Source: Anaerolineales bacterium (GTDB lineage Bacteria > Chloroflexota > Anaerolineae > Anaerolineales > UBA11858). From it: 64,000 nucleotides of DNA. Location of the stretch: contig JBARSF010000071.1 in NCBI GenBank assembly GCA_049644605.1, positions 38,943-102,942 on the forward strand, written 5' to 3'. This document shows, in pieces, positions 12,251 through 63,228 of this stretch. Both the position numbers and the translations under genes were made by a program. The notes under the pieces were generated by a model, which saw only the letters and a list, made by a program, of their open reading frames with translations, did no database searches and was not told the origin of the DNA. How positions within the stretch are numbered: position 1 is the first letter of the stretch; each line of letters opens with the position of its first letter.

Positions 12251-12287
12251 AGTTAAGCAAGCTAATAAAATATATTCTTTGATATAG

Positions 12288-32507: not shown

Positions 32508-33350
32508 ATGAATAAGACTGAGAAAGAGATCCAGCAGATCACAATTAATCCCCAGGAAAAGCGAAAAAGGCTCATAAATTGGCGTGAGCTATGGCAGTAT
32601 AAGGATTTATTCCTCTTCCTGGTCTGGCGGGATATTAAAACCAGGTACGCCCAGTCAATACTGGGAGTAGGTTGGGCAGTTATCCAGCCGGTCTTTTCAA
32701 TGATCGTTTTTACGATTGTATTTGGTAACCTCGCCAAAGTCAGCTCAGAAGGGGTTCCTTATGCTATCTTCAGTTACACTGCGCTGGTGCCCTGGACATT
32801 TTTTTCTTCGTCCCTTACCAGTGCGAGTGGGAGTCTGATAAGCTCAAAGAGCCTGATTACCAAGGTTTATTTTCCGAGGTTAGTCATCCCGATATCACCG
32901 GTCCTGGGAAAAATGATTGATTTTGGAATTTCCTTCTTGATCCTGCTGGGTTTAATGGTCTGGTTTGGGGTTAAACCGACCATCTGGGTATTAATGATCC
33001 CGGTCTTTATTTTATTGATGATGTTGACATCAGCTGGTGTGGGCATGTGGCTGACAGCCCTGTCGATACAATACCGGGATATTCGGTATGGTTCCACATT
33101 TTTTGTGCAACTGCTGATGTATGCTTCACCGGTGATCTACCCTGCCAGCAGTATCCCGGAAAAATACCAGGTTCTTTACGCCCTGAATCCAATGGTAGGC
33201 GTAATTGAAGGATTTCGGTCAGCCTTATTAGGAACTCGGTCCATGCCCTGGGAATATTTAGGGATAGGTTCCCTGATGGCTGTGGCCTTTTTTATTTCCG
33301 GAGCGCTTTATTTCCAGTCCATGGAACGTTATTTTGCAGATGTTGCCTGA
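32508..33350 (+). CDS. wzm: ABC-2 type polysaccharide export permease (Wzm/TagG/KpsM-like)
   Basis: ~280 aa with six predicted TM segments. N-terminal WRDIKTRYAQSILGVGWAVIQP signature typical of ABC-2 glycan exporters. Confidence 0.88.
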   Translation: MNKTEKEIQQITINPQEKRKRLINWRELWQYKDLFLFLVWRDIKTRYAQSILGVGWAVIQPVFSMIVFTIVFGNLAKVSSEGVPYAIFSYTALVPWTFFSSSLTSASGSLISSKSLITKVYFPRLVIPISPVLGKMIDFGISFLILLGLMVWFGVKPTIWVLMIPVFILLMMLTSAGVGMWLTALSIQYRDIRYGSTFFVQLLMYASPVIYPASSIPEKYQVLYALNPMVGVIEGFRSALLGTRSMPWEYLGIGSLMAVAFFISGALYFQSMERYFADVA

Positions 33351-33409
33351 CCGGAAAAATTGGTTTTCCCCAACCCGACAGGACGACAAAGAATATCGAG
33401 TAGAAAATT

Positions 33410-34723: not shown

Positions 34724-35614
34724 ATGAATATTGTTTATTTTTCCAAAGGGTTAAGGGGCAGCCGCTGTTTAGATCACATTTTAAAAGCGGGATACAAAGT
34801 TAAGGCAGTCGTGGGGGTAACCCAAGAAAAAGACCTGGAAGATTTAGCCAAGGAATTCAATTTTCCGATTTTAATTCCCGAAAAGTTAAATTCGACAGTC
34901 ACGGTTCAGGAGTTAAGAACCTATCATCCGGATCTTTTTATTTTATGTGGATACAATAAAATCCTGAAATCATTAATCATTGATATCCCTCCCTTAGGGA
35001 CAATTAATCTGCATGGAGGAAAACTCCCGGATTACCGGGGAGCGGCACCAATTAATTGGCAAATCATAAATGGAGAGATTGCTGGAGGGTGCTCGATACT
35101 ATATGTAGATGAAGGAATTGATACGGGAGATATTATTGCCCAGGAGATTTATCCCATAACCCCGGAAGACACCCATGCCAGTGTCCTGGAGAAAACCTTG
35201 AAGATCTTTCCCCCCTTATTGGAAAAAGTTCTTCAGCAGATAAAAAGCGGGAATGTGGAAGCCATACAGCAGGATCCAATGGAAGGTCGTTATTACTCCC
35301 GGCGTTATCCCAGGGACAGCCAGATAAAATGGCACAACATGGATGACTCCCAGGTCCATAATCTCGTACGCGCTATGCATGGTCCCTATCCGGCAGCCTT
35401 TACTTTCCGGGGAGAGACCAAAATTGAAATTGATAAAACAGAGCTGCTGCATGAAACCATCACCGGAGTACCTGGTCGAATTCCCCAGAAACGTGGAAAC
35501 CATGTAATTGTACTGGCAAAAAATCGCGGCTTGCTCATTGAGGAAATTTCAGTGGATGGTTGTTCGGTAAAACCAGCGGATTTCTTTAAGATTGGGGATG
35601 ATTTAACAGCATAA
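34724..35614 (+). CDS. Formyltransferase (Fmt/ArnA-N/sugar N-formyltransferase family)
   Basis: NLHGGKLPDYRGAAPINWQIING and DTGDII motifs of N10-formyl-THF-dependent transferases. 296 aa. Confidence 0.85.
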   Translation: MNIVYFSKGLRGSRCLDHILKAGYKVKAVVGVTQEKDLEDLAKEFNFPILIPEKLNSTVTVQELRTYHPDLFILCGYNKILKSLIIDIPPLGTINLHGGKLPDYRGAAPINWQIINGEIAGGCSILYVDEGIDTGDIIAQEIYPITPEDTHASVLEKTLKIFPPLLEKVLQQIKSGNVEAIQQDPMEGRYYSRRYPRDSQIKWHNMDDSQVHNLVRAMHGPYPAAFTFRGETKIEIDKTELLHETITGVPGRIPQKRGNHVIVLAKNRGLLIEEISVDGCSVKPADFFKIGDDLTA

Positions 35615-35635
35615 AAAGCGAGAGGAAGGTTTATT

Positions 35636-36613
35636 ATGAGTAAAGTGTTGATAACAGGTGGGGCAGGTTTTATCGGATCGTATGTATGTCGAAAACTGCT
35701 GGATATGGGTCATGAGGTTGTAGTCTATGATGCCTTTATCCAGTACATTTCCCCCCTGAAGAGCATTTTAAAAAAATATACTGAGCTGCGGTTCCAGGGA
35801 ATTGCAGATCAGATTGATTTTAGACGGGGTGATACGCGTGATAAAGCTCATTTGCGCAGGATAATCCTGGATACCAGGCCAGACAGGATTCTGCACCTGG
35901 CTGCGCTGCCGATCGCCGATCTGTCCAACAGGCATTCTGAGGAAGCGCTCACAAGTATTCTTGAGGGTGCAGTGAATGTTCTGGAAGTACTTCGTGATGT
36001 TGATTTTGTTGAGCGGTTTGTTTATATCTCATCGTCAATGATCTACGGAGATTTCGAGGAGATACCTGCTCCAGAGGATCACCCTAAACGTCCCAAGGAT
36101 ATTTATGGGGGAACAAAATATGCCGGGGAAGTGATGACAGAAACTTACAGCCGCCGCTACAACATCCCTTACAGCATTATCCGTCCCTCCGCTGTTTATG
36201 GTCCGTATGACGTTAACCGTCGTGTGAGTCAAATATTTGTGGAAAATGCCTTGCTGGGCAAACCGATAACGTTATATGGTGGTGGGCACCAGGTACTTGA
36301 TTTTACCTACATTGAGGATATCGCAGAAGGAATCATCCAAGTGATGTTCCATGAAAAAGGCGAAGGGAACGCGTTTAATATCACTTATGGAAAGGGATAT
36401 TCATTGCATGAATTTGCTGAAGTCCTTCAGACTCATTTTGCGGATCTGGATATCAAGATTGTTGAGGAAGAAGACGTGTTCCGCCCCAAGCGGGGAGCCC
36501 TCTCTATCAAAAAAGCACAAAAAATGGTTGGATATAATCCTCAAGTTTCATTGGAAGAGGGAATAAAACGTTATCTTGAGGTCTACCGGGACCTTGATGT
36601 ATATAATCATTAA
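35636..36613 (+). CDS. NAD-dependent nucleotide-sugar epimerase/dehydratase/decarboxylase (extended SDR)
   Basis: TGGAGFIGS Rossmann motif and YGGTKYAGE catalytic YxxxK. Confidence 0.85.
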   Translation: MSKVLITGGAGFIGSYVCRKLLDMGHEVVVYDAFIQYISPLKSILKKYTELRFQGIADQIDFRRGDTRDKAHLRRIILDTRPDRILHLAALPIADLSNRHSEEALTSILEGAVNVLEVLRDVDFVERFVYISSSMIYGDFEEIPAPEDHPKRPKDIYGGTKYAGEVMTETYSRRYNIPYSIIRPSAVYGPYDVNRRVSQIFVENALLGKPITLYGGGHQVLDFTYIEDIAEGIIQVMFHEKGEGNAFNITYGKGYSLHEFAEVLQTHFADLDIKIVEEEDVFRPKRGALSIKKAQKMVGYNPQVSLEEGIKRYLEVYRDLDVYNH

Positions 36614-36654
36614 AATATCTGATCTGTCCAGATGCAACAAAAAGGAAAGTAGGA

Positions 36655-37794
36655 ATGAAAATGCGAAAAATCCCCTTGTGTATCCCGTATACCGGGCAGG
36701 AAGAAAAAGATGCTGTTAACGAAGTGATTGACTCTGGATGGTATGCTCACGGTCCCAAAAACCATGAGTTTGAGGAAGGATTTGCGGATTACTTGGGCGT
36801 GAAACATGCCTTATCTATGAATTCCTGTACTTCTGCCATTCACCTGGCAGTTGAAGGTTTAGGAATCACAGGAGAAGTGATCTTGCCCAGCTTTACGTTT
36901 GTCGCGTCTGCCAATGCAGTGATAACTGGCGGCGCTCGTCCGGCATTTGCTGATATTCAGTATGACACCTGCAATATCGATCCTGGGTCGATTGAAAGAT
37001 TAATAAGTCCAGAAACGGAAGCCATTATGCCTGTCCACTTCGCCGGGCAGAGTGCCGATATGACGGCTGTTATGGAATTGGCTGAGAAACATAATTTGCT
37101 TGTGATTGAAGATTCAGCGGAAACAATCGGTGGAGAACACCAGGGAAGATTAACCGGTTCATTTGGCGTGGGCTGTTTTTCCTTTTATCCCACTAAAAAC
37201 CTAACTACCGGGGAAGGAGGTATGCTGACCACCAATGATGATGAGCTGGCCAAAAAAGTTAAATCCTTGCTGGCTCACGGCATTGACAAATCAACCTACG
37301 AGCGAGAGGATAAAGAAAAGTCCTGGTTTCGATCTGCCAGCCGGGTTGGTTACAACTTCCGATTGAGTAATATCCTGGCGGCGATTGGGGTGGAGCAGTT
37401 AAAGAAATTGCCAGAAATGAATCAGAAACGCCGAAAACTGGCGGCCAAACTGACAGAGTTACTTGCTGACATTCCTGAAGTTAAACCGCCTGTAGAAAAA
37501 CCGGAAAATAAACATGTCTACCAGATGTATACGATCCGGGTAATTAATGAATTGAATCGGGATGCTTTTGTAAGGGGATTAAATGCCAAAGGCATTGGGG
37601 CATCGATCCATTTCTTCCCGCCAGTTCATCATATGCCGCCTTATTTAGGTGATCAGTATAAACGGGATGCCTTATCAGTCACAGAAAAGGTTATTCGTGA
37701 AATTGTCACCTTACCGATGTATCCCCAGATGACGGATGATGATTTAAGCTATATGGTGGAAGCGATCCGGGATACGATTACTGAACTGAAATAA
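36655..37794 (+). CDS. DegT/DnrJ/EryC1/StrS family sugar aminotransferase
   Basis: PLP-lysine region FSFYPTKNLTTGEGGML. Length and overall pattern typical of the family. Confidence 0.9.
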   Translation: MKMRKIPLCIPYTGQEEKDAVNEVIDSGWYAHGPKNHEFEEGFADYLGVKHALSMNSCTSAIHLAVEGLGITGEVILPSFTFVASANAVITGGARPAFADIQYDTCNIDPGSIERLISPETEAIMPVHFAGQSADMTAVMELAEKHNLLVIEDSAETIGGEHQGRLTGSFGVGCFSFYPTKNLTTGEGGMLTTNDDELAKKVKSLLAHGIDKSTYEREDKEKSWFRSASRVGYNFRLSNILAAIGVEQLKKLPEMNQKRRKLAAKLTELLADIPEVKPPVEKPENKHVYQMYTIRVINELNRDAFVRGLNAKGIGASIHFFPPVHHMPPYLGDQYKRDALSVTEKVIREIVTLPMYPQMTDDDLSYMVEAIRDTITELK

Positions 37795-39547: not shown

Positions 39548-40345
39548 CTATTTACCGAGCAGTGACTTGATTTTCGCTCGCCAGGGATGTTTTTGCTGTT
39601 CCTGCCAACGCTGGTAGGAGCCAATCCTGGCGGGGGTTACTTTAGTGAGCAGTTTTTCTGTATTTTGTGTAAAAGAGATCGATAAAAAGTTGAATAGCTG
39701 CCGTGTTTGTTCCTGGGGCTGGGTACAAAAATCCTCGTAGGTAAGTTCAAAGTAAGCCTGGCAGTCACCAGATTGATCCAATACCCGCTGTGTGTAAGCC
39801 TCTGTGAGCGTTTTCCAATGATCAAAGTCATCCAGGATACCAACACCCGCCTTGTATTTTCCAGTCAGGGAAGCAGCGACATCATTTGGATTCCTCCGAA
39901 TATGGACAACCTTTGCCCCGGGAAATATCCGGAGATAGAGCGGCAGGAGCAGACACAAACGCGGATCTTTTATCCCCCATTTTGATACGCCGTCATATCC
40001 CCACTGCAAATAATCTACCAGCCAATGTTTTTTGATAAAAGCGCCAACGGAATTTTCATAAGCCAGTACTTCTTCTTTACTCATTAAGGGAAGTTTTGCC
40101 CAATTTCCCCCTCCGCCGAGGATCACTCGATCATTGATGAAATTGGAGAAGAAGTAGGATTCATGATGTTTCATATTAGCGCCAAAAAAGATCCCACTTT
40201 CATGGAGAATTTCAGTCAGGATCGATGTCCCGGAATTATGCATGCCAACAATAAGCACTGGCTGCTTTTCATTATTAACAGATTGTATAGTTTTGAGATC
40301 TATTGGGGGTAGATCCCTTTCTGATGGAAAAAATATCTTTTTCAT
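39548..40345 (-). CDS. Sulfotransferase family protein
   Basis: 5'-PSB-like loop VGMHNSGTS and a 3'-PB-like region KDPRLCLLLP...VVHIRRNPNDVAAS. Confidence 0.75.
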   Translation of the reverse strand: MKKIFFPSERDLPPIDLKTIQSVNNEKQPVLIVGMHNSGTSILTEILHESGIFFGANMKHHESYFFSNFINDRVILGGGGNWAKLPLMSKEEVLAYENSVGAFIKKHWLVDYLQWGYDGVSKWGIKDPRLCLLLPLYLRIFPGAKVVHIRRNPNDVAASLTGKYKAGVGILDDFDHWKTLTEAYTQRVLDQSGDCQAYFELTYEDFCTQPQEQTRQLFNFLSISFTQNTEKLLTKVTPARIGSYQRWQEQQKHPWRAKIKSLLGK

Positions 40346-40360
40346 TTAATATCTATTTTA

Positions 40361-41233
40361 TTACATAATATTGAACCCAAAGGATTTAACTATTGTAAGA
40401 TCCTCTGGATCAAATTGTTTAAGATCCTGGTTTTTGTATCTACCTAAAGAATCTGGAATTCTAGGTAGTTTCTGAGCTGCCAGAATAGTATCTTGATCAA
40501 CATCTAGATCGAGGAAAGAAACTAAATCACCAATGCTCTTATGCGGTTGTTGACAAAGTTGATCAAAATTGATTTGCATGTACTTACCTTCACCCAATGT
40601 TTTTCCAATCTCAGCCACCATCTTATTTGCCCTGGCCCAGAATTTTAATGCAGTCCGAGGATAATCTGCTTTTGTTTCTGGGGATGGGATATTAAAGAAT
40701 TGTCCCCAAGCTTTTAGCTGTCGTTGATTTCTACTAAATGCCATATCTACACCATGACGGATAGTGTGAATATATTTTATATTCTTAAAATGCTCAGATA
40801 TGGATTCTAGAAGTAAATAGGAATTGGGTTCTTTCCACCCCCAGCCAATGTATCGTGGGTCAACGAATCGTGGGTTACGAAGAATATTATTGAGCCTTCT
40901 AAATGACCAGGTTTTTTCGTCGCGGTAATGCAATGACATATCCGTAACAGCGTAAAACAGAAACCACAGCTCTTGAATTGATAACGAGTATCGTTTCAGT
41001 AATAGTTTTTCTAGCAGAGATAATCCAGTATTAATTCTTGTTGGATTATTATATGATTTATAAAACCAGGATTGCCTTCTGAATAAAAGTGTATACAGCA
41101 GGTTATCTGAGGAAACGTTCAAGTCATCTCCGAGGAAAAAACCGAACAGGGAGCAAAGTTCTGCTACCAGACGGGTTCCGCTACCACCCATTCCTCCGAT
41201 TACCAATGGTCCATTTTCCTTCCAAGAATTCAT
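40361..41233 (-). CDS. Sulfotransferase family protein
   Basis: P-loop-like IGGMGGSGTRLV and WGWKEPNS...YIHTIRHGVDMAFS, a pattern like that of the neighbouring sulfotransferase. Confidence 0.7.
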   Translation of the reverse strand: MNSWKENGPLVIGGMGGSGTRLVAELCSLFGFFLGDDLNVSSDNLLYTLLFRRQSWFYKSYNNPTRINTGLSLLEKLLLKRYSLSIQELWFLFYAVTDMSLHYRDEKTWSFRRLNNILRNPRFVDPRYIGWGWKEPNSYLLLESISEHFKNIKYIHTIRHGVDMAFSRNQRQLKAWGQFFNIPSPETKADYPRTALKFWARANKMVAEIGKTLGEGKYMQINFDQLCQQPHKSIGDLVSFLDLDVDQDTILAAQKLPRIPDSLGRYKNQDLKQFDPEDLTIVKSFGFNIM

Positions 41234-41246
41234 GATATTATTTTAC

Positions 41247-42161
41247 CTAATTATCTAACCAATCTTGACAATCCCAACCTGTGATTCGTTCCAGATTTCT
41301 GATCTCAAACTCATAAATTTGCTTCAATAGATCACGTTCTTCTACACTCATTGGGGAAGCATAATACCTTGTATGACGATTTATCGGCTCAACTGTATTC
41401 AAACTAGATACTTCTATAAATTGGTAGATTTGATTTAGACATTTTTTCGGGTCTTCTCGTAACTGCTTATTCCTCATAATCATTATCTGTTCCTCAGGGA
41501 AAAATGACCGGAGTCTCCTTATTTGTTCTGTATAAAAACCACGATCCAGATATGAAAAACGTCGATTCTGCCAGGGAAGGGATTCCTGTCGACGCTTTTC
41601 TTCTGATTGGATCGCATCAAAAAAAGACAAAGTGTCATATCCTCGATCCCTCTGCATATTCCAATGGGAGTATGCTCTTTCTATTGGACTCCGGAGGATG
41701 ATAATCAACTTCATGTTTGGATTGTATTCCCAGATCCTGCGGGGGACAGTGTACCAATACATATACACTGGGGTTGTCTCTCCCACGACTCTATGGTCTT
41801 GGTTGGGATTAAAAAATGCGTGGTACTGACAATAGTCCGGTTTTTGATAAAGAAAATTATTTTCCCTATCAAAATAATGAACCTCTTTATATTTGGCCAT
41901 GCAGACTTCTGGGTGTTGCCGCAGGTATGTATCTAAAGCTGTTGTTCCACCCTTTTGTGTTCCGCAAACGAGGAAGTTGACAATCGGTGCTGGTGATGGG
42001 TTCAGCAACAGTTTTAGGTCATGACGAATTCTCTCAAAGTAAGTAACACGGATATGATGGATAACGGATTTGAGTTTACTCATTATAATGTGGTCTATCA
42101 CTGGGCTAAATTGAAAAACCGTCAAATTTTTTCTGAGTCGATTAGAATACAACCGATGCAT
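41247..42161 (-). CDS. Sulfotransferase domain protein (Sulfotransfer_1-like)
   Basis: CGTQKGGTTAL (5'-PSB), KEVHYFD, and ILRSPIERAYSHW (3'-PB). The start is uncertain: 42161 or ATG 42083. Confidence 0.82.
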   Translation of the reverse strand: MHRLYSNRLRKNLTVFQFSPVIDHIIMSKLKSVIHHIRVTYFERIRHDLKLLLNPSPAPIVNFLVCGTQKGGTTALDTYLRQHPEVCMAKYKEVHYFDRENNFLYQKPDYCQYHAFFNPNQDHRVVGETTPVYMYWYTVPRRIWEYNPNMKLIIILRSPIERAYSHWNMQRDRGYDTLSFFDAIQSEEKRRQESLPWQNRRFSYLDRGFYTEQIRRLRSFFPEEQIMIMRNKQLREDPKKCLNQIYQFIEVSSLNTVEPINRHTRYYASPMSVEERDLLKQIYEFEIRNLERITGWDCQDWLDN

Positions 42162-52905: not shown

Positions 52906-53883
52906 ATGAAGTTCCTTATAGCAGGTTTTGGATCGATAGGACGTCGTCATTTTCGGAATCTCCTGAAACTTGGAGAACGGGAAATTATTTTCTATCGCAC
53001 GGGTCAAAGCACTCTGCCCGGGGAAGAACTTAAGGGATATCCCGTCGAGTCTGATATCCAGGCTGCTTTGTCCCATCGCCCTGACGGGGTGATAATCTCA
53101 AATCCAACTTCGTGTCACCTGGATGTGGCAATTCCTGCAGCGGATATGGGCTGCCACCTGTTAATCGAAAAACCCATCTCCCATTCAATGGATCGTGTAG
53201 AGGAGTTGGAAAAGCTCATTCAGCGAGGACCCTCGAAGGTGCTGGTCGGGTTTCAGTTCCGTTATCATCCAAATCTGAAACAAATTAAGAAATTGCTTGA
53301 TGATCGTGAAATTGGCCAACCATTGGCAGTCCGATCCCATTGGGGAGAATATCTACCTGATTGGCACCCCTGGGAAGATTATCGGACCAGTTACAGCGCC
53401 AGAAAAGACCTGGGTGGCGGGGTTTTATTAACTCTCTGCCATAGTTTTGATTATCTTCACTGGCTTTTTGGACCTCCTGAGGTTTTATGGTCCATTCTGG
53501 GGAATTACAGCGATCTGGACATAGATGTTGAGGATACAGCAGAAGTTGGCTTAATGTTTAACAAGACCATCCTGGGAAGTTTGCACCTCAACTACACTCA
53601 AATTCCAAATAAACATACCCTGGAGATTATCGGCACAAAAGGATCGATCTTCTGGGACTATTATCGAAACACTGTGGATTTATATGTGAGGGAAGAATCT
53701 GGCGAGACCAACAGGACGACTCTCCAAAGCCCTCCTGAATTTGAACGGAACGATCTTTTTTTTGATGAGATGAAACACTTTTTAGAGGTTACCAAAGGAA
53801 ATGCTGAACCTGTTTGCAATCTTCAGGACGGGATTGTTGCCCTTAAAATGGCGCTTCAAGCGAAAACAAAAGGAAGCTCATGA
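52906..53883 (+). CDS. Gfo/Idh/MocA family NAD(P)-dependent oxidoreductase
   Basis: MKFLIAGFGSIGRRH Rossmann N-terminus and the LLIEKPIS motif. Confidence 0.85.
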   Translation: MKFLIAGFGSIGRRHFRNLLKLGEREIIFYRTGQSTLPGEELKGYPVESDIQAALSHRPDGVIISNPTSCHLDVAIPAADMGCHLLIEKPISHSMDRVEELEKLIQRGPSKVLVGFQFRYHPNLKQIKKLLDDREIGQPLAVRSHWGEYLPDWHPWEDYRTSYSARKDLGGGVLLTLCHSFDYLHWLFGPPEVLWSILGNYSDLDIDVEDTAEVGLMFNKTILGSLHLNYTQIPNKHTLEIIGTKGSIFWDYYRNTVDLYVREESGETNRTTLQSPPEFERNDLFFDEMKHFLEVTKGNAEPVCNLQDGIVALKMALQAKTKGSS

Positions 53884-54161
53884 AGAAATTAGAACCTCGC
53901 ATACTATTTAGAAACCTGCTGATTGAAATCATCATCTACAGCGCACTGATATTTGGATATTATCTACTTGTCCTGCGCTATTTAGGTGATTGGCTGTTAT
54001 CCATCTTTCAATCAAATCTGGTCCTTTATGCCTTCTCAGGTTTAGGTTTAATTGTCCTTCAGGCAGTATTGCTGTATTTTGTGACATTAGTTTTATTGAA
54101 ATTTATCAAATTGGATCAATTTGGAATCAGGAGAGTATTGGATGTATTTTCCAATCGCTGA
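53880..54161 (+). CDS. Small membrane protein (93 aa)
   Basis: Two to three hydrophobic helices. It overlaps the upstream stop (ATGA) and the downstream TauE gene start. No family recognised. Confidence 0.5.
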   Translation: MKKLEPRILFRNLLIEIIIYSALIFGYYLLVLRYLGDWLLSIFQSNLVLYAFSGLGLIVLQAVLLYFVTLVLLKFIKLDQFGIRRVLDVFSNR

Positions 54162-55047
54162 TGTCACAATCAACCCCATCCTGCTGATGAGTGTAGGCTT
54201 TTTAGTGGGTATTCTGGGTGGTTTTTTTGGCGTTGGGGGAGGGTTTTTGGCAGGCCCGATGATGTTCTGGACTGGTGTGCCGATGAATTTTGTGATCGGA
54301 ACAGACCTGGCGCATATGACTGGGAAATCAATTGTGGCGGCCCGTACCCATCGAGCCCTGGGACACGTGGACCTGAAACTGGGAATGTATATGGTACTGA
54401 GTACTATTGTTGGTGTGGAGATTGGAGCCAGGATCGTTGAAGCACTTCAGGATACAGGAGCAATTGACATTACCATTGGGATCACATACATTGTCATTCT
54501 GGTTTGCATCAGCTTCTTTACTGCCTGGGAAAGCATCCGGGCCATCCAGATGGTCCGGACAGATCAAATTGATGTCAAAGAAGCGATCGGTTTTAAAGGT
54601 TTAGCAAAGCGGATCCAGGCTGTTAATATTCCCCCGATGGTTTCATTCCCGGTTTCTGGTATTGAATGCATTTCGATTTGGATGGTATTAGGTGTAGGCC
54701 TCTTTACGGGATTGCTGGCTGGAAGTCTGGGCGTTGGGGGAGGGTTTATCAGAATGCCAATGCTGGTATATGTGTTGGGGGTTCCAACCCATGTAGCGGT
54801 GGGAACAGATTTATTTGAAATCATATTCTCTTCTGGTTTTGGCACGATCACCCATGCGATTAAAGGAAATGTGGATATCTTAATGGCTCTGGTGATGCAA
54901 ACAGGGGCAGTGATTGGGGCTCAAATAGGCGCAACAGCTACTCGGTTTTTCGCTGGTCCCCGGATTCGTCTGGCTTTTTCTTTTTTGCCGCTTATTGGTG
55001 CAGTACTGGTTGTAATACGATTGGCAGGTAGTGGTTTGATGCATTAA
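54142..55047 (+). CDS. TauE/SafE (TSUP) family anion permease
   Basis: Polytopic protein with the duplicated GGFFGVGGGFLAGPMM / GSLGVGGGFIRMPML signature of the family. ATG 54142 has AGGAGAG upstream. Confidence 0.85.
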   Translation: MYFPIADVTINPILLMSVGFLVGILGGFFGVGGGFLAGPMMFWTGVPMNFVIGTDLAHMTGKSIVAARTHRALGHVDLKLGMYMVLSTIVGVEIGARIVEALQDTGAIDITIGITYIVILVCISFFTAWESIRAIQMVRTDQIDVKEAIGFKGLAKRIQAVNIPPMVSFPVSGIECISIWMVLGVGLFTGLLAGSLGVGGGFIRMPMLVYVLGVPTHVAVGTDLFEIIFSSGFGTITHAIKGNVDILMALVMQTGAVIGAQIGATATRFFAGPRIRLAFSFLPLIGAVLVVIRLAGSGLMH

Positions 55048-55065
55048 GGAGGTTTTAATAATCCA

Positions 55066-55887
55066 ATGAAAATATTGATCTATTTGGATAGTGAGAAATA
55101 TACCCACCCCCCGGTTTTAATGGGAAAGATCATTGCTAAGGCAACCAAAGCCAAGGTAAATGTACTGGTGGTTATTCCGAAAAGTGGACATCCTGAAAAT
55201 GGAGATGCAGTAGCTGACCAGGTTAAGACAGACCTGGAGGGGCTTTCTCCCCGGATCTCTATCAAACAAGGCCGTTCTAGTGAAATCATAAAAGATGAAC
55301 TGCTTCAAGAGCAATATCAGCTGGTGATCACCAATGCTGATCGGATAAACCGCTTCAGGAAATCTGTGGAGGTCGATCCAATATTGATAAAGCAGTCAAC
55401 TATCTCTGTATTGATCACGCAGAACACGAAACCTAAAATTGATAAAATCCTGTTATGTTCGGCATGCAAAGAAGGCGACTTTTCCTTGATCACCCAGGGA
55501 GCAAATTTTGCCAATGATCTGGGAGCTTCGGTGACACTGCTCCATGTTTTTGCTGGTGCAGTGCCGACCATGTATACCGGATTAGATCAAATTGAAGAAA
55601 CAGTTGAAGAAATTTTACAAACCGACACACCCTTTGCCCAGCATCTAAGGCGAGGTGTAGAAATTCTGCAAGATCTGGGCATTAACTCCGAGGTGAAAAT
55701 CCGTCATGGTATCCCCATTGAAGAGATTATCCGGGAAACGCAGTTTAATAACTACGATTTGGTTTTAATCGGTTCATCAAAAGTAAATGAAGGTCTTATA
55801 GAAATGTTATTGGGCAATCTTACTTTGAAAATAATTGATCGAGTGGAATTGCCTGTCCTGGTGATTGGAACCAGGGTCTTAAGCTAA
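55066..55887 (+). CDS. Tandem universal stress protein (UspA family)
   Basis: Two USP-like halves. The second carries VTLLHV, LVLIGSS and LPVLVIG motifs. Confidence 0.7.
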   Translation: MKILIYLDSEKYTHPPVLMGKIIAKATKAKVNVLVVIPKSGHPENGDAVADQVKTDLEGLSPRISIKQGRSSEIIKDELLQEQYQLVITNADRINRFRKSVEVDPILIKQSTISVLITQNTKPKIDKILLCSACKEGDFSLITQGANFANDLGASVTLLHVFAGAVPTMYTGLDQIEETVEEILQTDTPFAQHLRRGVEILQDLGINSEVKIRHGIPIEEIIRETQFNNYDLVLIGSSKVNEGLIEMLLGNLTLKIIDRVELPVLVIGTRVLS

Positions 55888-55985
55888 AACGCTGGAGCGT
55901 GATAATTTACCGTGTATGGTATCATATCCAGTCGATTTTTGAAAAAAAAGACTCCAAATATGGAGAAATAAATTACGAAAATTAG

Positions 55986-57731
<1,746 letters not shown>

Positions 57732-57804: not shown

Positions 57805-58638
57805 ATGGTGATGAACATGAACGAGATTCAAAAGTTATTTGACCTTACGGATCGGGTTGCAGTTGTCACCGGGGGGGCTGGGTTTCTGGGACAGCAATTT
57901 TCAGAGGCTCTGTCAGAAGCTGGCGCAAACATTGTTATTGCTGATATCAACCAATCTGCTGCAAATGATGCGGCGGATATGCTGAACCGAAAACGTGGTT
58001 CAGCCCTGGGTGTCGGGCTTGACGTGACAGATCCTTCCTCGGTCCAGAATTTGATGGACCAGACCCTGTCAAAATTTGGGCGGTTGGATATCCTGGTCAA
58101 TTCTGCAGCTCTGGATCCAAAGTTCGAACACCAGCATCAATCCCAGCATGTGACTTCTTTTGAGGATTTTCCTCTTCAAGCCTGGCAGGAAGCTCTGGAA
58201 GTAAACTTGACGGGGATGTTTCTGACCTGCCAGTTCGCTGCCAGGGAAATGAAGAAATCTGGAATTGGATCACTGATTAATATCTGTTCTACCTACGGCA
58301 TCACTGGACCAGATCAGCGAATATATGAATCTCTTGGTGAACCCAGGCTGTATAAACCTGTGTATTACTCAGTCAGCAAAGCCGGTGTGCTTGGATTAAC
58401 AAAATATATCGCTACCTACTATGAAGGCACGGAAATTCGCTGCAATGCCCTCACTCCTGGTGGTGTGGAACGGGATCATGCTCCGGCATTTAAGGAAGCC
58501 TACAGCAAAAGAACAGTATTAGGCAGAATGGCATACCCCCATGAGATGAAAGGGGCGGTCGTATTTTTAGCTTCAGATGCTTCCAGCTATATGACCGGAA
58601 CTAATCTTGTGGTGGATGGAGGATGGACAGCATGGTAG
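57805..58638 (+). CDS. Classical SDR family oxidoreductase
   Basis: VTGGAGFLG cofactor motif, NSAA, and YSVSKAG catalytic YxxxK. Confidence 0.85.
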   Translation: MVMNMNEIQKLFDLTDRVAVVTGGAGFLGQQFSEALSEAGANIVIADINQSAANDAADMLNRKRGSALGVGLDVTDPSSVQNLMDQTLSKFGRLDILVNSAALDPKFEHQHQSQHVTSFEDFPLQAWQEALEVNLTGMFLTCQFAAREMKKSGIGSLINICSTYGITGPDQRIYESLGEPRLYKPVYYSVSKAGVLGLTKYIATYYEGTEIRCNALTPGGVERDHAPAFKEAYSKRTVLGRMAYPHEMKGAVVFLASDASSYMTGTNLVVDGGWTAW

Positions 58639-59849
58639 AAGTCCTGGCACTTATTCCTGCTCGCGGAGGATCCAAAGGTTTACTCAGAAAGAATATTAAA
58701 CCTCTCGGTGGGTACCCCCTGATCGGGTACAGCATTGCTGCTGCTTTAAAAGCAGAACTGGTTACCAGGACAATTGTGTCAACTGACGATTCTGAAATTG
58801 CTGACCTGGCCCGGGAATATGGGGCGGAGGTGCCTTTTTTAAGACCGGATGAGTTTGCCCAGGATGATACCCGGGATTTGCCGGTTTTTCAGCACGCTTT
58901 ATCATGGCTCGCAGAACAGGATAATTATCACCCGGATATGATTGTTCAACTTCGTCCCACCAGCCCTTTCCGTCCTCCGGGATTAATTGACGGGGCGATC
59001 AAGACTTTACTTAATTTCCCAGAAGCGACTTCTGTTCGGGGTGTAGTCCCTTCCAAGCAAAATCCGTTTAAGATGTGGAGAGTACAAGCTGATGGAAAAA
59101 TGGCTCCACTGCTAGAAACAGAATATCCGGAACCTTTTAACATGCCCCGCCAGGAACTGCCGCCCACTTACTGGCAGACCGGACACATTGATGTCATTAA
59201 TACAAAAACCATTCAGAATGGATCTATGTCCGGAGATACAGTTTATGCCTATCATATCGATTCGCTTTTTTCTATAGACCTGGACAACTCACTGGATTGG
59301 AAACGGGCCGAAGAGCGTCTAAAATCATTGGGGGCTCAAATCATTCTGCCAACACAGCATAAGAAGATCATCCCGGATGGGATTTCTCTGCTGGTCCTTG
59401 ATTTTGATGGGGTTTTGACAGATGACCGGGTGTATGTCAATCAACACGGAGAGGAAACTGTAGCAGCGCACAGAGGCGATGGGATGGGTATTTCTCTTGT
59501 GAAAAAAGCTGGGATTGAAGTGATTATTCTTTCCAAGGAAAAAAATCCAGTGGTAAAAGCGCGGGCAGAAAAATTAGAGGTCCCGGTATTTCAAGGGATA
59601 GATGAGAAAGGGGAAGTCCTGCAGTCTTTAATGGCGGAAAAAAAGCTCTCTTCCTCCCAGGTTGTTTATCTGGGTAATGATATAAATGACCTGCCATGTT
59701 TCCCTCAGGTAGGTGTTGCTGCAGCCGTTGCTGATGCCCATCCTGCTGTAATTCAAAAAGCCCAGCTTATATTAAGTAAAAAAGGCGGCCATGGAGCCGT
59801 CCGGGAATTGTGTGATTTATTATTGGAAAGCATTAGAGGCAAGGAATAA
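58623..59849 (+). CDS. neuA: Fusion: N-acylneuraminate-type cytidylyltransferase (NeuA-like) + KdsC/YrbI-type HAD sugar-acid phosphatase
   Basis: The N-terminus ALIPARGGSKGLLRKNI is NeuA-type CTP_transf_3. The C-terminal ~165 aa, LVLDFDGVLTDDRVY...RGDGMGI...YLGNDINDLP...GGHGAVRELCDLLL, aligns closely with KdsC as I recall it. Confidence 0.85.
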   Translation: MDSMVEVLALIPARGGSKGLLRKNIKPLGGYPLIGYSIAAALKAELVTRTIVSTDDSEIADLAREYGAEVPFLRPDEFAQDDTRDLPVFQHALSWLAEQDNYHPDMIVQLRPTSPFRPPGLIDGAIKTLLNFPEATSVRGVVPSKQNPFKMWRVQADGKMAPLLETEYPEPFNMPRQELPPTYWQTGHIDVINTKTIQNGSMSGDTVYAYHIDSLFSIDLDNSLDWKRAEERLKSLGAQIILPTQHKKIIPDGISLLVLDFDGVLTDDRVYVNQHGEETVAAHRGDGMGISLVKKAGIEVIILSKEKNPVVKARAEKLEVPVFQGIDEKGEVLQSLMAEKKLSSSQVVYLGNDINDLPCFPQVGVAAAVADAHPAVIQKAQLILSKKGGHGAVRELCDLLLESIRGKE

Positions 59850-59869
59850 TACGGTCGGAGGATTTGAAT

Positions 59870-60775
59870 ATGAAACGGGAAGTAAAGCTGGGAAATCGCC
59901 GGGTAGGAGATAACCATCCTGTATACATTATTGCTGAGATCGGCATTAATCATAATGGTGATCTGGGTGTTGCAAAACAATTGATCGATGCAGCGGTCGA
60001 AGCAGGTTGTGACGCGGTGAAATTTCAAAAGCGAACCCCAAAATTATGTGTTCCTTCAGAGCAGCGTGACAAGATGCGGCATACTCCCTGGGGATATATC
60101 AGCTACATGGAATACCGTGAGAAGGTAGAGTTTGGCAAAGATCAATTCAGTGAAATAGCGGATTATTGTCAAGAAAAGAAAATTGATTGGATGGCATCAG
60201 CCTGGGATGAGCCTTCAGTGGATTTCCTGGAGCAATTTGATCCTGTCCTTCATAAGGCGCCTTCAGCCTCGTTAACAGATAAGGCATTATTAAGTAAGAT
60301 GCGTCAGCAAAATCGTCCACTAATGCTTTCTACCGGAATGTCGGAAATGGATCAAATTACGGCAGCGGTAGACTTGATCGGAACTGAAGATCTAATTCTC
60401 GCTCACTGTACCAGTACCTATCCCTGTCCTCCAGAAGAGCTGAATTTAAAAATGATTGAAACACTTCGGAAGATGTATCCCTGCCCGATTGGTTATTCAG
60501 GTCATGAGGTAGGGCTTCCTACCACCATTGCGGCGGTTACTCTTGGTGCGTCTGTTATTGAACGACATATCACCCTGGATCGGGCGATGTGGGGTTCAGA
60601 TCAAGCAGCTTCTGTAGAACCGGGCGGGCTGCGCAAATTAGTAAAATATATCAGAGTTGTTGAAAATGCCCTTGGTGATGGTGTAAAAACAGTCTACGAT
60701 AGTGAACGCCCCAGTCTGGAAAAACTTCGTCGGGCTGACACGCTTCCCATACGGGGTAGATTTGAGAAAAAATAG
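59870..60775 (+). CDS. neuB: NeuB-family nonulosonate (sialic-acid-type) synthase, short form
   Basis: PVYIIAEIGINHNGDL, DAVKFQ, ASAWD, and YSGHE motifs of NeuB. ATG 59870 is 7 nt after GGAGGA. At 301 aa it is too short to hold the C-terminal SAF/antifreeze-like domain. Confidence 0.85.
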   Translation: MKREVKLGNRRVGDNHPVYIIAEIGINHNGDLGVAKQLIDAAVEAGCDAVKFQKRTPKLCVPSEQRDKMRHTPWGYISYMEYREKVEFGKDQFSEIADYCQEKKIDWMASAWDEPSVDFLEQFDPVLHKAPSASLTDKALLSKMRQQNRPLMLSTGMSEMDQITAAVDLIGTEDLILAHCTSTYPCPPEELNLKMIETLRKMYPCPIGYSGHEVGLPTTIAAVTLGASVIERHITLDRAMWGSDQAASVEPGGLRKLVKYIRVVENALGDGVKTVYDSERPSLEKLRRADTLPIRGRFEKK

Positions 60776-60862
60776 ATCCAAATATTGCATTTCTCTTGAT
60801 TCATGGACTCAGCCATAAACCGTGGTTTCTGGAAATATATAGAAATAACAAAAGGGAGAAAA

Positions 60863-61522
60863 ATGTTTCACCTTCTGAGGGTGTTAAAATCCTTACCCAT
60901 AACTAAGAAAAAACGGCGTCACGGGATGGTAGGTCCTCCATATTTATGGAAGATGAAAAGAGAATTTCAAATAAAGTTCCTTAAGGATATGGATTTAAAA
61001 CCAGATCATTATCTTCTTGATCTTGGCTGTGGGACTCTCAGGGGTGGAATCCCGATCATAGAGTATTTAGAGATCGGTCATTATTTCGGAATCGAAGTCA
61101 GAAAGGAAGTGCTGAATGAAGGTCAGAAAGAGTTGGTAGAGACCGGCCTGGAATGGAAAAAACCAAACCTCTTGATTTCCTCTGATATAACAAATTATAA
61201 AATTGATCAAAAGTTTGACTTTGTCTGGGCTTTTTCGGTACTGCCGCATATGAGTGATGAAATACTTGTAGATAATCTGACCTTTGTTAGCAAACATTTA
61301 GCCGATGATGGCGTGTTTTATGCCAACGTCAATATAGATGAGCGGGAAGAAAAAAACTGGCAGGGTTTTCCAATCGTTTCCAGGACTTTTGATTTTTACA
61401 GTCAGAAATGTGAGGAGAGTGGTTTATCAGTCTCCTGTGTTGGAATATTAAAAGACTTGGGGCATATATCGAACCAGACATTACCAGATAGTCAAACAAT
61501 GTTAAAGATAACCAAAATTTAG
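60863..61522 (+). CDS. Class I SAM-dependent methyltransferase
   Basis: Motif I LLDLGCGTLRGG. ATG 60863 is preceded by AAGGGAGA; the ORF allows 60803. Confidence 0.7.
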   Translation: MFHLLRVLKSLPITKKKRRHGMVGPPYLWKMKREFQIKFLKDMDLKPDHYLLDLGCGTLRGGIPIIEYLEIGHYFGIEVRKEVLNEGQKELVETGLEWKKPNLLISSDITNYKIDQKFDFVWAFSVLPHMSDEILVDNLTFVSKHLADDGVFYANVNIDEREEKNWQGFPIVSRTFDFYSQKCEESGLSVSCVGILKDLGHISNQTLPDSQTMLKITKI

Positions 61523-61626: not shown

Positions 61627-63228
61627 ATGAAAGAATATCTCAATAAATTTAAACGGATGTTAATTTGGTTACAACAAACTGGTCGATTGTATTATTTAAA
61701 TCGGAAAATTGAATCCAATGCAGTTGAGAACTCCCAAGACAGTCCGGTAATATTTTTTAATGCCTCTGCTCGGTTGGCAGGGTTAAACCAAAACGCTGCC
61801 TTTTCAATGATCAGCAGCTGGGGGGTCCGATTGGCTGGAAGACAGGTTTATCATTTTGCCTGCCAATCCGGGATGAGCCATTGTGTTCTGGGAGCCGGAT
61901 TAGGTGATCCGAAAGCCAAACCACCCTGCCGGAGATGTATAGCAGATACAAACAGGTTTACAGGGGCTGCTCCCACAGTCTGGTTTGATTACCAGGAAAA
62001 TTCTGACCTGAGAAAAACTCTTGACGGAAAAAGCTTGGCTGAATTAAAAGAGCTGCAGTATCAAGATCGTCCTCTGGGAAAACTGGTATTACCCAGCATT
62101 CGCTGGATCTTACGGCGGCATCACCTGGAAAATAATGAGGTAACAAATTATCTATACCAGGAATATATTCTTTCAGCACATAATATTGCAGAAAATTTTT
62201 CTGAGTTTATGGCAGAAGTAAATCCTGCAGCAGTTGTAGTTTTTAATGGGCTGCAATTTCCGGAGGCAACTGTACGCTGGGTGGCGAAAGAACAAGGTGT
62301 CCGGGTAATCACTCATGAGGTGAACCTGCAACCCCTGTCTGCTTTCTTTACGGATGGGCAGGCCACAATTTATCCCTTGGAGATCCCGGAGAGTTTCAAA
62401 TTGTCCGAAGCTCAAAACCAGGCCCTGGATACCTATCTTCAAAAACGGTATCGGGGGGAGTTTACGATGGCCGGGATCAAGTTTTGGTCGGCGATGGATC
62501 AACTTCCAGCCGATTTTATATCCCACCTGGATGAATTTAGAGGCATTGTTCCTGTTTTCACCAATGTGATTTTTGATACCAGCCAATCCCATGCTAATAC
62601 CCTCTTCCCGGAGATGTTTTCCTGGTTGGACCTGGTTCATGAAACAGCGCAAAAACACCCCGAGATTTTATTTGTGATCCGGGCACACCCGGATGAAATG
62701 CGGAAAGGAAAGAGCAGCCAGGAAAGTGTCGTTTCCTGGTCTCTTGAGCGGGAAGTGGAAAATCTACCTAATTTGATTGTTGTTGGACCGGATGAAACTT
62801 TAAGTTCTTATGAACTAATCCAACGTTCAAAATTCACCATGGTATATAACTCTTCAATAGGGTTGGAAGCTACTTTGTTGGGTGCACCCGTATTATGCGC
62901 CGGCAAAGCCCGCTATACTCAATATCCCATTGTCTTTTATCCAGATTCCAGGGCCGAGTACGAGCGCCTTTTGAACTCATTTTTGACAGCGGAAGAAATC
63001 CAGATTCCTGGTCAGTTTTATGAGAACGCCCGCAGGTTTTTGTATTACCAGCTCTTTCGCGCCTCCCTGCCCTTTGATGAATTTCTGGTTGACGCTCCCA
63101 CGCCCGGGTATGTCCAGCTGAAAAATTTTTCCTGGAAGAAATTAATTCCTGGGTCCACACCAGCCGTGGATTGTATTGTGAATGGCATCCTCCATGGGGA
63201 TGATTTTTTACTGAAGGAAACGCGTTAA
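61627..63228 (+). CDS. Capsule_synth family protein (KpsC/KpsS-like CMP-sugar-acid glycosyltransferase candidate)
   Basis: LFVIRAHPDE and MVYNSSIGLEATLLGAPVLCAGKARY match the conserved C-terminal pattern of KpsS/KpsC/LipA-type capsule proteins as I recall it. Confidence 0.6.
   Translation: MKEYLNKFKRMLIWLQQTGRLYYLNRKIESNAVENSQDSPVIFFNASARLAGLNQNAAFSMISSWGVRLAGRQVYHFACQSGMSHCVLGAGLGDPKAKPPCRRCIADTNRFTGAAPTVWFDYQENSDLRKTLDGKSLAELKELQYQDRPLGKLVLPSIRWILRRHHLENNEVTNYLYQEYILSAHNIAENFSEFMAEVNPAAVVVFNGLQFPEATVRWVAKEQGVRVITHEVNLQPLSAFFTDGQATIYPLEIPESFKLSEAQNQALDTYLQKRYRGEFTMAGIKFWSAMDQLPADFISHLDEFRGIVPVFTNVIFDTSQSHANTLFPEMFSWLDLVHETAQKHPEILFVIRAHPDEMRKGKSSQESVVSWSLEREVENLPNLIVVGPDETLSSYELIQRSKFTMVYNSSIGLEATLLGAPVLCAGKARYTQYPIVFYPDSRAEYERLLNSFLTAEEIQIPGQFYENARRFLYYQLFRASLPFDEFLVDAPTPGYVQLKNFSWKKLIPGSTPAVDCIVNGILHGDDFLLKETR

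Follow-up and report, generated by a model that had tools for sequence, protein, structure and literature searches.

A cytidylyltransferase-phosphatase fusion in an Anaerolineales polysaccharide cluster points to a phosphorylated route towards a CMP-activated nonulosonic acid

Introduction

Nonulosonic acids cap the surface glycans of bacteria and shape the way in which these are recognised by phages, hosts and neighbouring cells. The stretch of DNA analysed here (64,000 nucleotides (nt) of an Anaerolineales bacterium, assembly GCA_049644605.1, contig JBARSF010000071.1, positions 38,943 to 102,942 of the forward strand; termed the window) carries at 58623-59849 a single gene in which a cytidylyltransferase is joined to a phosphatase-like domain of the HAD family, which raises the question of what sugar such a protein would activate and by which route that sugar would be made. 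An earlier note on this DNA had proposed that the synthase encoded next to it makes a 9-phosphorylated nonulosonate, possibly the 9-phosphate (KDN-9-P) of 3-deoxy-D-glycero-D-galacto-nonulosonic acid (Kdn), which the fusion protein would dephosphorylate and convert to the CMP-sugar.

The phosphorylated route of this proposal is well supported, and Kdn as the sugar is uncertain. A phosphorylated intermediate that is dephosphorylated and CMP-activated by the fusion agrees with the marker residues of its HAD half, with the lack of a NeuC or kinase gene in the window and its syntenic relatives, and with the separate HAD genes of related loci, whereas Kdn itself is called into question by an altered sugar pocket (Arg-Asp-Met, R-D-M) and by two accompanying oxidoreductases. 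It is thus likely that the route is phosphorylated and the enzyme bifunctional. The best explanation as a whole, to which we give about an even chance, is a NeuC-independent phosphorylated route in which a bifunctional enzyme delivers a redox-modified Kdn-type sugar. What is new here is a distinct R-D-M cytidylyltransferase family, predicted to act inside a widespread module with two dedicated oxidoreductases; the fusion itself is known.

The fusion gene and its two domains

58623..59849, + strand: putative bifunctional fusion open reading frame (ORF), with an N-terminal CTP_transf_3 CMP-ulosonate synthetase and a C-terminal KdsC/YrbI-type, KDN-9-P-phosphatase-like HAD domain; 408 amino acids (aa) as listed
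58644..59327, + strand: cytidylyltransferase domain, aa ~8-235; CTP-binding PARGGSK/RKN intact; R-D-M sugar pocket
59379..59831, + strand: HAD phosphatase domain, aa 253-403; motifs I-IV and specificity triad E306/R314/K317

That one 408-aa ORF joins a cytidylyltransferase to a KdsC-like domain proved to be real, and every motif quoted for it was located within 58623-59849, namely ALIPARGGSKGLLRKNI, DFDGV at aa 260, RGDGMGI, GNDIND at aa 351 and GGHGAVRE at aa 388. The N-terminal half is matched by PF02348 (CTP_transf_3, Pfam) at aa 9-143 with E=4e-23, and the C-terminal half by TIGR01670 (KdsC/YrbI subfamily, NCBIfam) at aa 254-402 with 121.0 bits, above the curated cut-off of 106.95. The closest PDB sequences are the CMP-N-acetylneuraminic acid (CMP-Neu5Ac) synthetase of Vibrio cholerae for the N-terminal half (6ifd, E=1e-33) and a 'putative HAD family hydrolase' of Streptomyces avermitilis for the C-terminal half (3mmz, E=4e-42); judged by their scores, these Pfam, NCBIfam and PDB matches are far beyond chance. 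An AlphaFold2 model based on 41 homologues (mean pLDDT 82) displayed two folded domains, which resemble CMP-nonulosonate synthetases (TM-score ~0.8 on the target; by Foldseek, ~0.8 of the N-domain to 6ifd, 1eyr and 9t4z) and 3mmz/KdsC, respectively. Modelling thus upholds the two-domain reading of a CMP-nonulosonate synthetase fold followed by a 3mmz/KdsC fold, and no full-length two-domain entry was found among the 50 PDB structure matches listed for the model.

The true start of the gene is probably the second ATG at 58632, which gives 405 aa, because a GGAGGA Shine-Dalgarno sequence lies 9 nt 5' of it, the homologues are 405 aa long, and the invariant columns of the alignment begin at M4. 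A promoter and terminator scan gave counts near the shuffled expectation and was uninformative.

The fusion is not unusual. A homology search with the protein returned at least 8000 matches, and nearly all of the best 120 are ~405 aa long with both domains, many of them named 'N-acylneuraminate cytidylyltransferase' and derived from Anaerolineales. In an exhaustive search of 50%-identity cluster representatives, 1694 proteins reached E<=1e-30, and the best 150 representatives include ~86 full-length fusions with 35-56% identity (~86-90 diverse ones). Such fusions are annotated in cultured rhizobia and are present in Sinorhizobium, Ensifer, Maritalea, Nonomuraea and roseobacters, and those of Sinorhizobium meliloti pSymB and Maritalea adjoin NeuBs of 312 and 303 aa, respectively, which lack the SAF domain, together with sialyltransferase-like genes. 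In the work of Daughtry (2013), orthologues of the KDN-9-P phosphatase (KDN9PP) reportedly occur fused to the nucleotidyltransferase of the pathway. The architecture is thus known, common and routinely annotated, and the fusion as such is nothing new; a literature search, within the papers available to it, found no characterised bacterial bifunctional cytidylyltransferase-phosphatase.

Other arrangements were also seen among the matches. In P0135, P0151 and P0189 (433-479 aa), the cytidylyltransferase match is C-terminal (e.g. residues 192-409), which suggests fusions in the reverse order, hence independent fusion events. P0100, a 709-aa chain with CTP_transf_3, HAD and NeuB that is 69% identical to the window protein and lies on a 3.3-kb metagenome contig, may represent either a genuine triple fusion or an artefact of a frameshift.

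The phosphatase half

The reference for the HAD half is BT1713 of Bacteroides thetaiotaomicron (PDB 3e81/3e8m), which, as reported by Wang (2008) and Lu (2009), is a KDN-9-P phosphatase acting together with the KDN-9-P synthase BT1714 and a CMP-Kdn synthetase. The BT1713 sequence used was confirmed to be 100% identical to 3e81, as was the C-domain of mouse CMP-sialic acid synthetase (CMAS) to 3ewi. In an alignment with BT1713, 3mmz and two KDO-8-P phosphatases (KDO or Kdo: 3-deoxy-D-manno-octulosonic acid), E306, R314 and K317 of the window protein fall on E56, R64 and K67 of BT1713, while the two KDO-8-P phosphatases carry Arg...Arg...Ser/Asp at the positions of this triad. The PDB holds the BT1713 mutants E56A (4hgq) and E56A/K67A (4hgr), and Glu56 and Lys67 are therefore independently shown as residues studied for specificity; the rule by which Glu/Lys sets KDN-9-P phosphatases apart from KDO-8-P phosphatases is reportedly that of Lu (2009) and Daughtry (2013). 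Motifs I to III of the HAD half are intact (D260-F-D262, S304 and K329, respectively), and motif IV reads G-N352-D353-x-x-D356 (GNDIND), with Asn at the position of BT1713 Asp103, which is presumably a Mg2+ ligand. Among the 86 diverse fusions, the DxD is present in all 86 and the E/R/K triad in at least 83.

On the marker residues and the genomic context, the HAD half probably belongs to the KDN-9-P-phosphatase lineage. Against the KDO-8-P phosphatase KdsC stand a sub-cut-off score (141 bits with the KdsC equivalog NF007019, cut-off 208), Glu instead of Arg at the discriminating position, and the lack of KdsA, KdsD and KdsB in the window.

A quite different role would follow from the vertebrate enzyme, which has the same architecture and whose C-domain in mouse is reported to mediate tetramerisation and to be devoid of detectable phosphatase activity (PMC8636478). 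The HAD half would then be a non-phosphatase oligomerisation scaffold and the NeuB would take an unphosphorylated sugar, to which motif IV also lends itself, being GND rather than GDD, as in the GNE of mouse. However, the nucleophile and the acid Asp are invariant in 86/86 fusions and the E/R/K triad is kept, whereas mouse CMAS has NID in place of DxD, with Asn for the nucleophilic Asp (alignment with 3ewi); moreover, in phyla other than Chloroflexota the operon encodes the HAD as a gene of its own, which is sometimes fused to a phosphosugar isomerase. We consider a scaffold quite improbable.

The adjacent synthase and the search for other pathways

59864..60775, + strand: SAF-less NeuB-family synthase, presumed nonulosonate-9-P synthase; PF03102 only; 303 aa as listed
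57805..58638, + strand: PtmA-like short-chain dehydrogenase (SDR); NF006619 at 190.8 bits, below the cut-off of 255
52906..53883, + strand: GFO/IDH/MocA oxidoreductase, second conserved redox partner; parted from the SDR by an inserted block for the synthesis of 3'-phosphoadenosine 5'-phosphosulfate (PAPS)

The stop codon of the SDR gene overlaps the fusion start at 58632, and the fusion is, as read from this overlap, translationally coupled to the upstream SDR. The NeuB gene begins 20 nt past the fusion stop codon with its own GGAGGA, and its start is probably ATG 59870, giving 301 aa. The protein is matched by PF03102 at 271 bits without the C-terminal SAF domain that would carry Arg314 (Pfam) and scores 268 bits with the N-acetylneuraminate synthase equivalog TIGR03569, below the cut-off of 399.65. 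It keeps the equivalents of NmNeuB E25, K53, Q55, H215, E234, H236 and D247; its identity is 42% with the NeuB domain found in the sibling 628-aa proteins discussed below and 33-36% with the rhizobial short NeuBs.

The earlier observation that the window holds no NeuC-type UDP-GlcNAc 2-epimerase was borne out both by Pfam (PF02350, ~50 ORFs covering the window) and by a hidden Markov model (HMM) made from bona fide neuC; the same Pfam search of the window revealed no sugar kinase and no enzyme set for pseudaminic (Pse) or legionaminic (Leg) acid. The sequence past the window end was viewed via the syntenic relatives L001-L003. In relatives with 70-95% identity, the same gene order extends over the 10 kb that follow NeuB. 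Encoded there are sulfotransferases, a GT2 glycosyltransferase, a further small cytidylyltransferase, a 2-hydroxyacid dehydrogenase, an SDR, an MptE-like protein and PMT_2, and neither a NeuC nor a kinase was found within these 10 kb downstream. Since the HAD markers are accompanied by no NeuC, kinase, Pse or Leg genes in the window or the syntenic relatives, the phosphorylated-intermediate route is well supported.

The genes past the window-end equivalent form a second conserved module (L002 15925-20131, L003 16388-20580, L005 15001-18759), which is composed of GT2, a small cytidylyltransferase (213-228 aa, pocket H-Y-R), a 2-hydroxyacid dehydrogenase, an SDR, an MptE-like (DUF115/Maf-type) protein and PMT_2, and which may represent a second CMP-activated acid sugar or a glycerate-type pathway.

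The sugar pocket of the cytidylyltransferase half

The pocket residues of NmCMAS and of the Kdn-specific PpNeuA, which has Arg196 as its gate-keeper for Kdn and the conserved residues Gln110 and Tyr183 (PMC12934254), were mapped onto the window protein. The CTP-binding residues R14, K18 and K23 are kept, and the sugar pocket has Arg111 for NmCMAS Gln104, Asp190 for Tyr179 and Met202 for Phe192/PpNeuA Arg196, so that the canonical CMAS pocket (Gln104, Tyr179 and either a hydrophobic residue for Neu5Ac or Arg196 for Kdn) is not found in this enzyme. Among the 86 diverse fusions, 60 have the Kdn-type pocket Q-Y-R and 11 the window's type R-D-M/L; the rhizobial and Maritalea fusions are Q-Y-R, and stand-alone relatives of 240-260 aa with 45-56% identity to the window N-domain are almost all R-D-M. 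Between the Q-Y-R and R-D-M fusion classes, the HAD halves are ~46% identical and share the same markers, whereas the N-domains are only ~32% identical; the window cytidylyltransferase therefore comes from a distinct family.

Known families did not account for it. Identification with LegF was rejected, as the Sulfitobacter LegF in a canonical Leg cluster (LegB, LegC, NeuC, NeuB, PtmE) is Q-Y-F; its identity to the window enzyme is 39-40%. PseF was likewise dismissed (TIGR03584 at 142.5 bits, cut-off 205.7; 'LYATAPF' in the PseF type against 'LRPTSPF' in the window), and Acinetobacter baumannii matches that seemed to reach into the HAD half were ordinary PseF genes. The argument that a missing Arg196 excludes Kdn was weakened by the B. 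thetaiotaomicron-type cytidylyltransferase, which belongs to another, SpsF-like lineage; the Arg196 rule is, on these comparisons, limited to canonical CMAS.

A five-component module across phyla

A scan of species-representative genomes with an R-D-M profile gave 80 loci, which were annotated with HMMs from the window and reference loci; the counts below cover 77 R-D-x loci, some of which are cut by contig ends. The R-D-M module is defined here as a short NeuB, a cytidylyltransferase with the R-D-M/L pocket (CTP), a GFO/IDH/MocA oxidoreductase, an SDR and a KdsC-like HAD. All five components are carried by the window, and the module is distributed over about ten phyla of bacteria. In Chloroflexota, the genes run in the order GFO/IDH/MocA, (PAPS block), SDR, CTP+HAD fusion, short NeuB and a 533-aa protein; separate genes for short NeuB, CTP (R-D-M), GFO, SDR and HAD occur in Cytophagales, other Bacteroidota, Actinomycetota, Nitrospira, Pseudomonadota and one Lachnospiraceae genome. 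A HAD is encoded in 44 of the 77 loci, fused in 33 (all Chloroflexota) and separate in 11 (Bacteroidota, Actinomycetota, Nitrospira, Pseudomonadota, Bacillota). An SDR accompanies 31 of the 33 fused-HAD loci and a GFO 23 of them, some of these loci being cut by contig ends. NeuC is nearby in one locus out of 77, where it belongs to an adjoining canonical pathway whose cytidylyltransferase is Q-Y-x and whose NeuB bears a SAF domain. The D-D-E-R-K-K marker set is present in 8 of 12 separate HADs, and the separate Cytophagales HAD of L047 passes the KDN-9-PPhBT equivalog (182.9 bits, cut-off 180; NCBIfam). By gene content, the window gene is the Chloroflexota (fused) form of a multi-phylum NeuB/HAD/R-D-M cytidylyltransferase/GFO/SDR module.

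The adjacent NeuB is short and SAF-less in 43 of the 44 HAD-bearing R-D-x loci, and within this group the presence of a HAD does go with a SAF-less NeuB. As a general rule, however, the notion that a short NeuB is diagnostic of a phosphorylated substrate had to be abandoned, since the B. thetaiotaomicron-type KDN-9-P synthase, encoded next to its HAD, carries a SAF domain.

Further domains are attached to the module in sister loci. In four loci, a GmhA-like SIS phosphosugar isomerase is joined to the HAD (fusion proteins of 357-382 aa; L053 13314-14387, L064 13626-14774, L073 11576-12667, L083 7165-8259); these HADs are without an Arg64 equivalent, and the SIS domains score 172-184 bits, below the gmhA cut-off of 209.45, which suggests an altered substrate specificity. 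Some NeuBs, in Bacillota, Binatia and Patescibacteria, carry a fused cupin/D-lyxose (mannose)-isomerase-like domain (L061 11062-12567 of Anaerosporobacter mobilis DSM 15930, L070 10668-12389, L072 97-3105), and in a Patescibacteria metagenome-assembled genome a single 1002-aa protein comprises CTP_transf_3, CTP_transf_like, NeuB and cupin. A third version, seen in sibling Chloroflexota, is a 628-aa NeuB-SAF-AP_endonuc_2 protein, with the architecture reported for Leptospira interrogans by Ricaldi (2012), beside a stand-alone R-D-M cytidylyltransferase, without a HAD (L004 9790-11676, L005 9766-11652, L030, L039, L042, L045, L077), which in L045 stands side by side with the fused-HAD/short-NeuB version. 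The AP_endonuc_2 domain shows weak similarity only to phosphodiesterases such as CbiR and DNase IV, and it may be a phosphatase, as Ricaldi proposed, or an isomerase. The three unrelated isomerase-type folds on the module suggest that a ketose is converted to an aldose or aldose phosphate, as would be the case for fructose-6-P and mannose-6-P. A weak HAD-IIIA/EcbF-BcbF-like extension is found at the C-terminus of the Lachnospiraceae cytidylyltransferases (~335-356 aa).

The SIS domains also bear on the chain length of the product, since their likeness to GmhA, a sedoheptulose-7-P isomerase-like fold, would accord with a 10-carbon acid from D-glycero-D-manno-heptose-7-P, and the 42% overall identity of the HAD to a KDO-8-P phosphatase (KDO8PP) would accord with action on Kdo-8-P. 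Such an ulosonic acid of other chain length is nevertheless highly improbable, given that the SIS scores lie under the gmhA cut-off, that Glu/Lys is the marker of the nine-carbon substrate KDN-9-P whereas KDO8PPs have Arg at the Glu position, and that the window has a NeuB-type synthase with no KdsA, KdsD or SIS domain.

The two oxidoreductases, GFO and SDR, accompany cytidylyltransferases of the R-D-M and the PseF-like type in the loci examined. In a Bacteroidales locus with a KDN9PP orthologue and a PseF-like cytidylyltransferase (L092), whose HAD and NeuB are 71% and 76% identical to the B. thetaiotaomicron-type proteins, GFO/IDH/MocA and SDR are fused in one chain of 564 aa (11043-12737), which supports the view that both oxidoreductases work jointly. 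The next gene after this fusion is DUF4910/DUF2172 aminopeptidase-like, and such a gene likewise occurs in L004.

Proposed pathway and identity of the sugar

61627..63228, + strand: 533-aa protein with weak similarity to KpsC/KpsS (Capsule_synth) and to the BFO_1060-type glycosyltransferase

In the pathway proposed here, the SAF-less NeuB would condense phosphoenolpyruvate (PEP) with a hexose-6-phosphate, most plausibly mannose-6-P (Man-6-P), to a nonulosonate-9-phosphate; the C-terminal HAD domain would remove the 9-phosphate, and the N-terminal cytidylyltransferase would convert the dephosphorylated nonulosonate to its CMP-sugar. The activated sugar would be a redox-modified Kdn-type nonulosonic acid, e.g. 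an epimer formed by oxidation and then reduction, and it would be spent on a sulfated surface polysaccharide by the KpsC/S-like 533-aa protein, which is kept downstream of NeuB in Chloroflexota and is a candidate CMP-ulosonate transferase. The substrates, the order of the steps and the sugar are read from domain identities, marker residues, operon coupling, synteny and co-occurrence.

The Arg/Asp/Met pocket and the two oxidoreductases that travel with it indicate that the sugar is probably of a redox-modified Kdn type and not Kdn itself, although the choice between modified and plain Kdn is evenly balanced. In the plain pathway, Man-6-P and PEP would give Kdn-9-P, Kdn and CMP-Kdn, the R-D-M enzyme would be another lineage of CMP-Kdn synthetase, and GFO and SDR would have other roles, either on a different sugar of the polymer or following transfer. 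The KDN9PP markers of the window HAD speak for it, as do the module HAD that passes the KDN-9-P phosphatase equivalog cut-off (that of L047), the CMP-Kdn synthetase of the B. thetaiotaomicron type, which is itself SpsF-like without Q-Y-R so that the pocket type does not dictate Kdn use, and the habitat, since the extracellular polymers of wastewater sludge and its granules, where Anaerolineae are common and thrive, are rich in Kdn and related sugars (PMC10483923). What it leaves unexplained is the tight co-occurrence of GFO and SDR with the R-D-M enzyme across phyla, the translational coupling of the SDR to the fusion gene, the concerted change of three pocket residues, and the lack of the GFO-SDR pair in the B. 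thetaiotaomicron-type loci L093 and L094 and in S. meliloti (L006). Three of the four plain Kdn-type loci examined are without the pair, and in Maritalea (L007) only a distant SDR lies ~7 kb away on the opposite strand. Plain Kdn is a serious alternative, which we judge unlikely as a complete account.

An amino sugar would be reached if hexosamine-6-P or N-acetylmannosamine-6-P (ManNAc-6-P) were condensed with PEP by an animal-like route, with the 9-phosphate removed and a neuraminic-acid-type sugar CMP-activated; PtmA/PtmF-like oxidoreductases could supply the amino-sugar phosphate, and Asp190 would bind a free or modified 5-amino group. BT1713 is reported to have been crystallised with Neu5Ac (Lu 2009), which counts for this route, and so do the PtmA family as the best NCBIfam match of the SDR and a Leptospirales locus (L082) with a short NeuB, an R-D-L cytidylyltransferase and an aminotransferase. 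Legionaminic-acid clusters contain a PtmA-LegF-PtmF trio (PMC4481668), for which the literature search gave gene tables only and no stated biochemical role of PtmA/PtmF, and a phosphorylated Neu5Ac route has been proposed for Leptospira from a NeuB fusion (PMC3438082). Yet no aminotransferase, acetyltransferase, NeuC or kinase occurs in the module of the window or of most loci, the hydrophobic residues of the N-acetyl pocket are missing, bona fide LegF is Q-Y-F, and the isomerase domains of sister modules point to ketose-to-aldose conversion and not to amination, so that the amino route appears rather improbable.

Returning to a redox-modified Kdn made through a phosphorylated intermediate, a number of observations weigh against it. 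The window HAD scores 104.4 bits with the KDN-9-P phosphatase equivalog NF058599, below the cut-off of 180, and is more similar overall to the KDO8PP of Pseudomonas syringae (42%) than to BT1713 (36%), and it is for these reasons that the KDN9PP assignment rests on marker residues and context. The Asn of motif IV is common to 3mmz and 77 of the 86 diverse fusions, and the identity of the window NeuB with the BT1714-type synthase amounts to only 33%. At least four cytidylyltransferase lineages, among them the SpsF-like one of B. thetaiotaomicron-type loci, are found paired with KDN9PP-type HADs, so that Kdn is not excluded by the missing Arg196. The substrates of GFO and SDR could also lie elsewhere, e.g. 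in a hexose phosphate or in the polymer, and no characterised member of the R-D-M family was found in the literature. That the R-D-M module makes an undescribed nonulosonic acid, e.g. an epimer or redox-modified form of Kdn derived from a sugar phosphate, and feeds a sulfated extracellular polysaccharide in Anaerolineales is accordingly offered as a tentative idea, with the balance leaning somewhat against it.

The surrounding polysaccharide cluster

60803..61522, + strand: class I S-adenosylmethionine (SAM) methyltransferase, between NeuB and the 533-aa transferase

The region 25995-63228 constitutes a surface-polysaccharide cluster, which harbors Ugd, epimerases, MBOAT, a Wzm/Wzt ABC transporter and a formyltransferase with DegT, further rmlCBAD, Gmd with a fucose synthase, three sulfotransferases and several glycosyltransferases, and in its later part the PAPS-synthesis block (TauE, Usp, Sat-CysC), the SDR, the fusion, NeuB, the methyltransferase and the 533-aa KpsC/S-like protein. 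The PAPS block lies between GFO and SDR at 54121-57731 (+ strand) and encodes a TauE-family permease, a Usp protein and a fused ATP-sulfurylase/APS-kinase; the three sulfotransferase genes are located elsewhere in the cluster (39548-42161, - strand), and relatives have more of them downstream. The polysaccharide is probably sulfated. The SAM methyltransferase, which might O-methylate the sugar, is missing from the equivalent position in the relatives L002 and L003. GC content across 60-62 kb is 0.414, lower than in the neighbouring regions.

A formyltransferase, a 4,6-dehydratase/epimerase-type SDR and a DegT aminotransferase (34724-37794, + strand) suggest a formamido-deoxy sugar, and a Wzm/Wzt ABC exporter with a Wzt C-terminal domain (32508-34702, + strand) adjoins these genes.

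Significance

The fusions annotated as 'acylneuraminate cytidylyltransferase' fall into at least two classes by sugar pocket, which makes a blanket Neu5Ac or Kdn annotation unsafe. The five-component module, widespread as it is and with no characterised member found, offers a concrete target for the discovery of new CMP-sugars, and its HAD-CTP, HAD-SIS, NeuB-cupin, NeuB-AP_endonuc_2 and GFO-SDR fusions provide a Rosetta-stone argument for the order of the steps.

Comparison with known systems

The Kdn pathway of B. thetaiotaomicron shares with the window a NeuB-family synthase, a C0-type HAD with Glu56/Arg64/Lys67 and a CTP_transf_3 cytidylyltransferase, and is likewise NeuC-independent and placed in a polysaccharide locus. 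In loci of this type (HAD 93-99% identical to BT1713), however, the genes for CTP (249 aa), NeuB+SAF (346 aa), HAD and GT4 are separate, the SpsF-like cytidylyltransferase ('RICSDNPF') shares only 20% identity with that of the window, and there is no adjacent GFO or SDR. The Kdo pathway (KdsD-KdsA-KdsC-KdsB) also combines a PEP-condensing synthase, a YrbI-family phosphatase that falls within TIGR01670 and a CMP-transferase, and its phosphosugar isomerase step is paralleled by the SIS isomerase of sister R-D-M modules, but in the window the synthase is of the NeuB type and not KdsA, the HAD has Glu/Lys and is not of the Arg type, and the cytidylyltransferase is not KdsB.

The mainstream bacterial fusions, such as those of S. 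meliloti pSymB (WQO98178.1) and Maritalea (WP_117397082.1), both named 'acylneuraminate cytidylyltransferase', have the same domain order at ~390-410 aa and the same HAD markers including GND, and adjoin a SAF-less NeuB of ~300 aa. They differ from the window protein in an N-domain of ~32% identity with the Q-Y-R pocket, in the lack of a GFO/SDR pair and in their sialyltransferase-like neighbours. Vertebrate CMAS (N-domain 1qwj, C-domain 3ewi) is similarly built of a cytidylyltransferase followed by a KdsC-like HAD whose motif IV starts with G-N, and differs at the nucleophile, where mouse has NID and the window keeps DxD together with the substrate triad.

In Leptospira interrogans, Ricaldi and colleagues described in 2012 a NeuB fused to a C-terminal AP-endonuclease-like 'phosphatase' domain, from which a phosphorylated, animal-like route was inferred (PMC3438082). 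The Leptospira-type fusion is unlike that of the window, as the extra domain sits on the synthase and has an unrelated fold, SAF is kept and no HAD is present; nevertheless, the 628-aa NeuB-SAF-AP_endonuc_2 proteins of L004 and L005 are found in the same surroundings of R-D-M cytidylyltransferase, SDR and GFO as the fusion described here.

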